DNA of 22,409 nucleotides from a virus (lineage: Duplodnaviria > Heunggongvirae > Uroviricota > Caudoviricetes). The number at the start of each line of letters is the position of its first letter. Positions within the stretch are counted from its first letter, which is position 1. A model generated the notes under the pieces. That model made no database searches. It saw only the letters and a program-made list of their open reading frames with translations, and was not told where the DNA came from. Shown one piece after another: positions 9,837-11,203 of the stretch. The DNA is taken from IMG/VR virus record IMGVR_UViG_2534681674_000017; one strand, written 5' to 3'. The position numbers were made by a program, and so were the translations under genes.

Positions 9837-10239
9837 TCAATATGTCGAGACGAAGGTATGTTTCGGCGCGCAGCCAGGCTCTGTAATCCGGGAGCATTTC
9901 GGGGCTGTTACACCAGCGGTTTGTTGCTGCAACATTTAATACATGAGCCTGATAAAGGCTTTTCAAAAAATACATGTCGAACCTCCTCTGGTTCTGTCGA
10001 TTGGGAACCACAGATTATATCCGGAGGAAGGTTCGGCACCAGATGAGGTAGCCATGCGTGATTACGCAAAAGTTTCTCCGCGATTCTGGCTGGGAGAAAC
10101 GGGGAGAGAACTTAGAAAGGCGGGTGCAGAAGCGCAAGTTGTTGCTTTTTACCTGATGACATCCCCTCACGCAAATATGCTGGGTTTGTATTACCTGCCA
10201 GTTTTATACCTTGCTCATGAAACCGGGCTTGGTCTGGAA

Positions 10240-10283
10240 GGGGCTTCAAAGGGGCTTCAAAGGGGCTTCAAAGGGGCTTAAAA
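10240..10283. repeat. Four tandem 11-bp repeats (GGGGCTTCAAA; fourth unit GGGGCTTAAAA), iteron-like
   Basis: Read directly: units at 10240-10250, 10251-10261, 10262-10272, 10273-10283. A unit is not a multiple of 3, so unit number sets the reading frame. Confidence 0.85.
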
Positions 10284-10517
10284 GGGCTGTTGAAGCTGGT
10301 TTTTGTAGCTATGACCATGATGCAGAGATGGTCTGGGTCCATGAAATGGCAGCCTGGCAGGTTGGGGAAACGTTGAAGCCTGGCGATAACCGTTGTGCAG
10401 GTGTCAGGAATGAGTATGCATCATTACCTGAAAACGCTTTTCTGTCAGTGTTTTACGACAGATATAAAACGGATTTCCATCTGGATGTGAGGCGGAATAA
10501 TAGCCGAAATTCGGTAA

Positions 10518-10550
10518 GGGGCTTCGAAGGGGCTTTTAAGGGGCTTCGAA
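10518..10550. repeat. Second cluster of three 11-bp repeats (GGGGCTTCGAA / GGGGCTTTTAA / GGGGCTTCGAA) followed by a GAACAG hexamer tract
   Basis: Read directly; 33 bp, frame-neutral; followed at about 10556-10600 by CAGGAACAGGAACAGGAGCAGGAG... encoding QEQEQEQEQEKEQEQ. Confidence 0.8.
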
Positions 10551-11203
10551 GCCAAGAACAGGAACAGGAACAGGAGCAGGAGAAAGAACAGGAACAGGAC
10601 AAAAACACTATGGTTCATGGCAAAAAAAACACCACGAACCAGGCAGGGGATGTTCAGACCGTCAATCCTGGTCAGCCAGCAGGCACGACACCGGAAGCCG
10701 ATTCAGCGTATGCGCTGAAAGCCGATTCGGGCGCTGTGCAGCAGGTGATGACCGCAGGGTCGGAGCAATCACACCAACTGCAGCAGCCTGAAGCCGATTC
10801 CGCCATTCAGCGGGAAGCCGATCGGGTAGTCCCGGAAAGCACCGGGCAGTCTGTGGGACGAGTGGATTATCCGGATGTGTTCGAACAGGTCTGGCGGGAA
10901 TACCCGTTGCGTGCTGGGGCAAACCCGAAGAAATCCGCTTTCAGTGCCTGGAAGGCCAGATTGCGCGAGGGGGTGCCACCAGAGACCATGCTGGATGGTG
11001 TGAGGCGTTACGCGAGATACCTGGCGGCGACCGGGAAAGCGGGAACGGAATTTGTTCAGCGAGCGACGACGTTTTTTGGGCCGGACCGGAATTTTGAAAA
11101 CCCCTGGTTGCTCCCGGTAAGCGGCACGAACAACCAGCGTTGTGTGAATCATATTTCTGAACCGGATACCGAAATTCCGCCGGGATTCAGGGGGTGATGT
11201 GGC

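Follow-up and report, generated by a model that had tools for sequence, protein, structure and literature searches.

The 22,409-nucleotide DNA stretch IMGVR_UViG_2534681674_000017 (hereafter the window), from a virus of the class Caudoviricetes, contains at 10054–11197 a gene predicted to encode a phage replication initiator, which carries two clusters of 11-bp repeats within its coding sequence and is frame-broken inside the first cluster. The repeats are probably lambda-O-like or SPP1-gp38-like iterons located inside the initiator gene, which was disrupted by slippage at these units to give a recent pseudogene. The analysis established directly how the repeats are built, where the frame breaks, how the alleles are distributed, that there is constraint at the DNA level, and that the repeat motif is linked to the N-terminal domain of the initiator. 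By analogy with the known systems, the units would be bound by the initiator itself, and the region would serve as the origin.

Repeat clusters, frame break and unit-number alleles

Repeat cluster 1 (site 1) spans 10240–10283 and consists of four 11-bp units, whereas the normal allele has two. By direct reading, three copies of GGGGCTTCAAA occupy 10240–10272 and are followed by the variant GGGGCTTAAAA at 10273–10283. Thus, the four tandem units reported in a first-pass annotation, which had been made from the sequence alone, are present but are not identical, three being perfect and one a variant. Repeat cluster 2 (site 2) spans 10518–10550, directly before the linker of the encoded protein, and consists of three 11-bp units (RGFEGAFKGLRS) in the order GGGGCTTCGAA, GGGGCTTTTAA, and GGGGCTTCGAA; neither cluster is listed with a strand. 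Tandem Repeats Finder returned cluster 1 at 10238–10286 (period 11, 4.5 copies, 97% matches) and cluster 2 at 10516–10551 (period 11, 3.3 copies). The three related units, which the first-pass annotation had also placed at 10518–10550, were thus seen by direct reading and by Tandem Repeats Finder, as well as by a pattern search.

Each unit is an 11-bp near-palindrome, GAAG-GGG-CTTC, repeated head to tail. The spacing of the units corresponds to one helical turn, with the units on one face of the DNA, and the distance between the two clusters is ~250 bp. The gene therefore contains several phased direct repeats, 4 + 3 units at 11-bp phase, as expected for an iteron origin. A loose unit pattern (≤2 mismatches) showed no enrichment over the whole 22.4-kb window (11 found versus 7.8 expected). 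Within the gene, 7/7 matches with 0–2 mismatches fell in the two arrays; because all seven are phased and tandem, these arrays are not chance occurrences. The units of the window use all three reading frames, coding for GASK, GLQR, and GFK, and for RGFE, GAFK, and GLRS.

Cluster 2 is followed by a GAACAG hexamer array (10556–10607, plus strand), which codes for the linker (EQEQEQ) that joins the N- and C-terminal domains and was detected by Tandem Repeats Finder as a hexamer at 10556–10599 and also with a period of 18 at 10556–10607. The length of this array differs between near-identical prophages by +6 and +18 nt, multiples of 6 that are always in frame. The repeat unit of the two clusters is 11 bp, which is not a multiple of 3, and slippage therefore shifts the frame, except by three units.

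For the window allele, the N-terminal remnant of the initiator (10054–10281, plus strand) starts at ATG 10054 and runs for 75 codons to the TAA at 10279–10281, inside the last repeat unit. This 75-aa remnant is identical to residues 1–68 of the intact 371-aa protein of Escherichia coli O103:H2 12009, in which site 1 codes for EGASKGL, residues 62–68. The rest of the coding sequence (CDS), at 10284–11197 on the plus strand, continues in the frame of the open reading frame (ORF) 10211..11197, one base off the N-terminal frame, and encodes what is left of the N-terminal domain, followed by the linker and the C-terminal domain with its EIPPGFRG end. The ORF reading thus confirmed the predicted stop at TAA 10279 and the offset of one base. 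Removal of two units in silico yielded a single ORF of 373 aa and addition of one unit yielded 384 aa, in agreement with the prediction that either change would fuse the two frames. The 373-aa product was found exactly on 13 contigs.

The unit count is the sole lesion in the window gene. Because there is no further lesion and the allele minus two units encodes a protein with exact matches elsewhere, the frame break is recent, and the window initiator is a recent pseudogene in an already decaying prophage.

To count the units in related prophages, 5426 complete E. coli genomes were surveyed with a 201-bp query, the alleles being told apart by identity bands. The N-terminal part was carried by 469 of these genomes (about 9%), and at least the C-terminal part by 2428. 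Site 1 had 2 units in 465/469 carriers, 3 units in 3/469, and 1 unit in 1/469, the last four genes being annotated as frameshifted, and all 59 of the 59 rows sampled from the 2-unit identity band were 179 nt long. No 4-unit allele was present among the 469 genomes. The intact ORF of the 2-unit allele is 371–373 aa; a single ORF of ~380 aa had been anticipated in relatives, and about 99% of the carriers have this 2-unit form. These results indicate that, of the explanations first offered, an inactivated initiator fits the frame-broken window gene.

In an alignment of four near-identical prophages, the differences were whole units. The window has 4 units at site 1 and is frame-broken; the prophages of OkiPb01713 and 2013C-4974 have 3 units and are annotated "frameshifted"; O103:H2 12009 has 2 units and one intact 371-aa CDS (WP_001205820.1); and O157:H7 Z1486 has 1 unit and is annotated "frameshifted". 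The sister alleles are thus already flagged as frameshifted in RefSeq. The relatives carry one ORF and not two conserved separate genes. The two-CDS appearance in the phage records of CharmingMan, Fraca, and NK-7 was considered and rejected, as each has one intact initiator gene and an overlapping neighbour.

Exact-protein look-ups were made in a collection of 15 billion proteins. The intact 371-aa protein was found on at least 1000 contigs, the 3-unit N-terminal fragment on 68, and the 1-unit fragment on 5. The 75-aa fragment of the window was found on one contig, NKOY01000099.1 of the draft assembly GCA_002460175.1, seen in 2 samples. Over window 5883–12141 (6.26 kb), this contig differs from the window by 3 single-nucleotide polymorphisms (SNPs) and 0 gaps, and its counts of units (four) and hexamers are equal to those of the window. 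Because an independent draft assembly reproduces the 4 units, the 4-unit allele is not a one-off artefact. The fourth unit could nevertheless be an assembly or sequencing error, the true allele being the 3-unit or 2-unit form, given that 4 units occur in no complete E. coli genome of the collection and that the nearest prophages (99.7% identical) have 3. However, NKOY01000099.1 shares the four units and the EQ-array length while its 3 SNPs lie elsewhere, the gain of exactly one 11-bp unit is what replication slippage typically produces, ordinary reads are long enough to span a 44-bp array, and the gene would be broken even at 3 units. The artefact raised in the first-pass annotation is thus largely excluded, and we regard it as extremely improbable.

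The array might instead be a reversible slipped-strand contingency switch (2, 3, 4, or 5 units) for the replication competence of the prophage. The array is located within an ORF and has a unit length not divisible by 3; 1-, 2-, 3-, and 4-unit alleles occur in near-identical prophages; and the 3-unit alleles are found on two C-terminal/linker backgrounds, both different from that of the 4-unit allele, suggesting recurrent events. The 7 units in the truncated Burkholderiales copy described below point in the same direction. Against this, the off and on alleles of a contingency locus should both be common, whereas 465/469 complete genomes have exactly 2 units; two tandem units are a poor slippage substrate; and the broken alleles occur in prophages with other lesions. 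In addition, exact protein look-ups for an in-frame 5-unit allele, made for the backgrounds of the window and of O103 12009, found none. The census leaves the proposal unsupported as a high-frequency switch, and it is very unlikely. The repaired OkiPb01713 allele (377 aa) was likewise not on record by exact protein look-up.

In a Burkholderiales metagenome-assembled genome (MAG; L061, 940–1360), a 5'-truncated second initiator copy lies ~1.5 kb upstream of the intact one. The truncated copy combines 7 tandem site-1 units with a site 2 of mixed orientation and a long GAACAA/GAACAG array, and is an independent case of unit expansion in a dead copy.

DNA-level conservation across the initiator family

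Eighty family loci, which came from many phyla, were fetched by the peptide patterns V[SA][FLM]YL[ML]T[SNC]PH and ANM[LI]G[LM]YY, a selection independent of the repeats. Homologues of the N-terminal domain were found in Klebsiella, Raoultella, Salmonella, Proteus, Acinetobacter, Burkholderiales, Rhizobium, and various MAGs. The motif GAAGGGGCTTC was present in 76/80 loci, at the same two gene positions, indicating that the repeats are co-inherited with the DNA-binding domain of the initiator. Site 1 is GAAGGGGCTTCGAAGGGGCTT, coding for EGASKGL, in nearly all 80 loci. Site 2, just before the SQEQEQEQ linker, is either the same sequence in direct orientation (EGASKGL) or its reverse complement GAAGCCCCTTCGAAGCCCCTT (EAPSKPL), so that one DNA unit gives two unrelated peptides depending on its orientation. 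Site 2 is inverted in most relatives and direct in the window and other enteric loci.

For the four-fold degenerate codons in the motif, the third-base entropy over the 80 loci was 0.11 bit for G63, 0.75 bit for A64, 0.49 bit for G67, and 0.87 bit for L68, and that at P156 of site 2 was 0.30 bit. The entropy at all 33 other scorable conserved four-fold columns was 1.25–1.96 bit, one further column with a single usable codon being left unscored. The mid-unit position, the third base of S65, is free (1.45 bit). Thus, the DNA is conserved beyond coding need, as is expected for an iteron origin. Furthermore, the 9-mer AAGGGGCTT (≤1 mismatch) reached a density of 6.4 per kb over the initial 650 nt of the gene, compared with 0.26 per kb in the flanks, a ~25-fold enrichment, and the commonest layout was "++" at +184/+195 and "--" or "---" at +428 to +462. 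The sequenced Shiga toxin (Stx) phage POCJ13 of Shigella has the window-type N-terminal domain; its initiator is a single intact ORF in which the sites are "++" and "--", and a DnaC-like gene is present.

These comparisons show that the repeats act at the level of the DNA, together with the N-terminal domain of the initiator, and are not a peptide repeat, because the synonymous sites are nearly frozen and site 2 occurs in either orientation. This is the behaviour predicted by the analogy with ori-lambda drawn in the first-pass annotation, and the analogy is thereby supported.

The repeats could instead act as the peptide EGASKGL, or as an mRNA stem of site 1 with the inverted site 2. Residues G63, A64, K66, and G67 are invariant in close homologues and lie within a confidently modelled helix, and in most relatives, where site 2 is the reverse complement of site 1, ~22 nt could pair. 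However, peptide constraint does not explain the frozen synonymous positions, and site 2 codes for its two unrelated peptides in a region modelled as disordered. Furthermore, both sites have the same orientation in the window and in the enteric loci, where a stem is impossible and the motif is kept nonetheless. The orientation and the synonymous sites have already largely refuted a peptide or RNA role, for which we see scarcely any probability.

The replication genes of the family are modular. Of the window gene, Escherichia phage Tritos and 689R5 have only the C-terminal half in common, with ~96% DNA identity from window 10602 on, and homology to sequenced phages with the other N-terminal domain starts at ~10602, right after the EQ array; the GAACAG/EQ array thus marks the module boundary. 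The N-terminal domain of Tritos and 689R5 has its own two clusters of ~10-bp GTCACG repeats, 260 bp apart (2154–2192 and 2414–2462 in the Tritos locus L004, and the same in L005), and the second cluster lies directly before a TDKDTDKD linker. Another DNA-binding domain thus occurs with other repeats in the same layout, which therefore fits cognate initiator–iteron pairs.

Given this modularity, the conserved DNA could be a recombination linker for module exchange in mosaic phages, kept identical by recombination. Site 2 adjoins the boundary of the N-terminal domain swaps, and the sequence after it, CGAAGCCAAGAACAG, is likewise highly conserved. Site 1, however, lies in the middle of the N-terminal domain, away from any module boundary, and the homology to the other N-terminal type begins after the EQ array and not at the units. 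In addition, the two orientations at site 2 could not be maintained by homologous exchange, and recombination does not need phased 11-bp tandem copies. A recombination linker is highly improbable.

In some relatives, a third unit cluster was observed by the start codon: at 2455–2500 of the Acinetobacter thermotolerans locus (L035), and also in L015, L022, L033, L037, and L046. The Acinetobacter cluster, at -38/-27/-16, overlaps a GGAG Shine-Dalgarno-like sequence and is a possible autoregulatory operator. Such a position suits the explanation that the units are operators through which the initiator, or another phage or host protein, autoregulates the replication operon, with the origin elsewhere. 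In many plasmid Rep proteins, related sites serve both replication and autoregulation. However, no upstream cluster exists in most family members, the window included, and the internal clusters are fixed at +184 and about +440 across phyla, an odd place for operators. Moreover, the operator and origin roles are not mutually exclusive. An origin elsewhere, with the units acting as operators, is unlikely.

Initiator architecture and comparison with known systems

The intact 2-unit allele, from which the window DNA differs only in the unit and hexamer counts, matched PHROG 1701 ("DnaD-like helicase loader") from end to end (1–371 to 1–323 of 323, E 1.6e-148). The C-terminal half matched PHROGs 3729 and 270, "replication initiation protein", and the last 24 residues are weakly like the C-terminus of DnaT. 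NCBI labels the family, WP_001205820-like, as "DNA-binding protein". Together with the DnaC-like neighbour, these matches point to a phage replication initiator, as first annotated, and the N-terminal frame, far from lacking replication-protein homology, belongs to the initiator family. A functional member of PHROG 1701 would have a single uninterrupted ORF; in the window the frame breaks at TAA 10279, and the gene is a pseudogene of the family.

In the mechanism we propose, the initiator would bind DNA through an N-terminal domain of ~135 aa, which an EQ-rich linker joins to a loader-recruiting C-terminal domain. Site 1 falls in the part of the gene that codes for the N-terminal domain and site 2 just before the linker, both being probable binding sites. 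The N-terminal domain would bind the 11-bp units of both clusters and distort or open the nearby DNA, and the C-terminal domain would bring the DnaC-like loader and the host helicase to the opened DNA. The most A+T-rich part of the initiator gene (10425–10510, GC 0.36–0.40), just upstream of cluster 2, is a candidate unwinding region. In the window, slippage from 2 to 4 units, perhaps via 3, would have cut the DNA-binding domain at residue 68.

For the N-terminal domain, AlphaFold model 1 gave a predicted local distance difference test (pLDDT) score of 80–94 over residues 11–90 and a winged-helix-like core, with a helix at 25–36, a strand at 45–47, helices at 50–57 and 60–73, and a hairpin at 77–88. 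Residues 62–68, encoded by site 1, form the start of the second helix of the helix-turn-helix (HTH) in both AlphaFold models, and in model 1 the helix with these residues sits at the position of the recognition helix of a winged helix. The DNA-reading helix of the initiator might thus be encoded by the very 11-bp unit that it reads, an idea drawn from the models that we consider rather doubtful. If it were true, the protein and its site would be locked together, which could explain the near-constancy of the motif from Enterobacteria to Rhizobiales and Acidobacteriota MAGs, and any change in the iteron number would be a frame-shifting on/off event for prophage replication.

Several observations weigh against intragenic iterons bound by the initiator. 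The fold of the N-terminal domain, tentatively an HTH or winged helix, is weakly supported as DNA-binding: AlphaFold model 2 (N-terminal 173 aa) kept the two helices but lost the hairpin, with lower confidence; Foldseek against the PDB gave weak matches (best E 0.03), nearly all to MarR/CAP/ArsR winged helices; no Pfam match to the domain was obtained with both halves and 25 homologues; a profile search of the PDB sequences with the domain gave no match; and no homology to Rep proteins of known structure was found. The motif was missing at both positions in four distant members (L070, L082, L083, and L086). When these were checked for other repeats, only L082 had a variant unit, GAAGGGGTCC, and the other three had nothing convincing. 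Recombination at the module boundary could account in part for the frozen synonymous positions of site 2. The 11-bp units of the window are shorter and more tightly packed than the classical 17–22 bp iterons. A clear A+T-rich unwinding element was not found: a GC dip of ~12 points at +375 to +390, before site 2, is kept over 76 family loci, but it coincides, as does the A+T-rich stretch at 10425–10510, with an F/Y/K-rich peptide motif and is thus confounded. The searchable literature on the motif or its peptide yielded only unrelated primer coincidences with no relevant context. In the L082 locus (2932–3054, an Ignavibacteriales MAG), the variant unit forms two clusters near the linker, separated by 69 bp, and an inverted AACCCCT follows each of them.

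The closest known arrangement is that of lambda O. In lambda and Stx-phage O, the iterons lie mid-gene, and the difference between 4 iterons in lambda and 6 in Stx phages adds 13 aa (PMC7466680). The window gene shares with lambda O the origin-type repeats inside the initiator's own gene and the variation of iteron number between relatives. It also shares the order of an N-terminal domain with repeats, a flexible linker, and a C-terminal domain engaging the next-encoded loader (P in lambda, the DnaC-like protein in the window), as well as the exchange of the N-domain-plus-repeat cassette as a module. Conversely, the window initiator has no sequence relationship to O and no match to Pfam Phage_rep_O with both halves and the 25 homologues. 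Its units are 11 bp, contiguous, and in phase, whereas those of lambda are ~19 bp and spaced; it has two clusters ~250 bp apart, whereas lambda has one; and its site 1 lies inside the codons of a structured DNA-binding domain. A change in copy number shifts the frame in the window, whereas the lambda-type gains of iterons are in frame. No clear A+T-rich tract was found in the window gene, and binding of its units by the initiator would follow from the analogy.

The replisome organizer gp38 of Bacillus phage SPP1 binds the direct repeats of oriL within gene 38 (PMC6316719), an arrangement like that of the window, in which direct repeats again lie inside the initiator's own gene; binding is known for gp38 and is presumed for the window protein. 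The Tritos-type initiators, which are Phage_rep_org_N-type, share with the window the C-terminal half and two clusters of ~10-bp repeats followed by a low-complexity linker. The N-terminal domain and the repeats of these systems differ from those of the window (GTCACG in the Tritos type versus GAAGGGGCTTC), and the N-terminal domain of the window has no match to Pfam Phage_rep_org_N.

The iteron origins of the plasmids pPS10, F, R6K, and RK2 resemble the window in their phased direct repeats, cognate initiator, and probable winged-helix/HTH fold, and the extra copies near the start codon in some relatives of the window suggest autoregulation as in the plasmids. The plasmid iterons, however, are 17–22 bp and lie outside the rep coding sequence. 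Phase-variable loci likewise contain intragenic tandem repeats that have a unit length not divisible by 3 and that vary in length among close relatives, whereas here the normal allele has 2 units, about 99% of the carriers are fixed, and reversibility was not seen.

Prophage context and implications

Over 94% of its length, the window shows 99.7% identity to the prophages that lie beside yccA in 2013C-4974 and OkiPb01713. We interpret the locus as the replication module of a lambdoid prophage that is inserted next to yccA and has degenerated. Just downstream of the initiator gene, where the first-pass annotation had placed a DnaC-like loader, lies an intact DnaC-like helicase loader gene (11204–11950, plus strand; NF009043, PHROG 50, Pfam IstB_IS21 and Bac_DnaA). 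Its product matched NF009043 over residues 1–248 of 248 with 509.4 bits (cutoff 389) and is the presumed partner of the C-terminal domain of the initiator. In 2013C-4974, the DnaC-like gene has a 2-nt deletion (window 11393–11394) and is annotated as frameshifted, whereas the window copy is intact; the sister prophages are therefore decaying at different points of the replication module.

An IS3-family insertion sequence (IS) element occupies 2695–4003, inside the exonuclease gene, and is missing at the same site in the otherwise 99.7–100% identical 2013C-4974 prophage. Further IS3 and IS66 elements are annotated downstream in the 2013C-4974 stretch that aligns to the window at 99.7%. Six SNPs relative to 2013C-4974 fall within 77 bp (10963–11039) of the region for the C-terminal domain of the initiator, and the remaining 18-kb alignment outside an IS3 is almost SNP-free, which suggests a small recombination patch.

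A gene of the ECs1072 family (9520–10011, minus strand) lies antisense between the ydaT-like gene and the initiator gene, 43 bp from its ATG. It resembles an insertion of the moron type, and early rightward transcription would have to pass through it. A module of a ParE toxin, a PaaA2 antitoxin, and an HTH regulator is located at about 7189–8098 on the minus strand, and resembles the PaaR2-PaaA2-ParE2 system reportedly described in a cryptic O157:H7 prophage (reference 61 of PMC11014345). A promoter and terminator scan of 9300–11300 gave results at chance level.

An origin inside the initiator gene and the decay of cryptic prophages are classical phenomena, and the decay here is ordinary. The literature searched on oriJ, Rac, and ydaU did not provide the sequence of an origin for this module. 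The specific motif, the conservation of its synonymous sites across phyla, and the layout of two clusters in either orientation in an initiator family appear to be undescribed.

For annotation, the ORFs 10054–10281 and 10211–11197 are to be read as a single frameshifted initiator pseudogene. For the family, which ranges over the Stx phages of Shigella, phages of Klebsiella and Acinetobacter, and many Proteobacteria, and which has no Pfam family and no solved structure, these results provide a candidate origin and the iteron motif GAAGGGGCTTC for a very widespread and unstudied prophage initiator. Slippage at iterons embedded in the coding sequence would be a simple route by which a prophage loses its replication competence.

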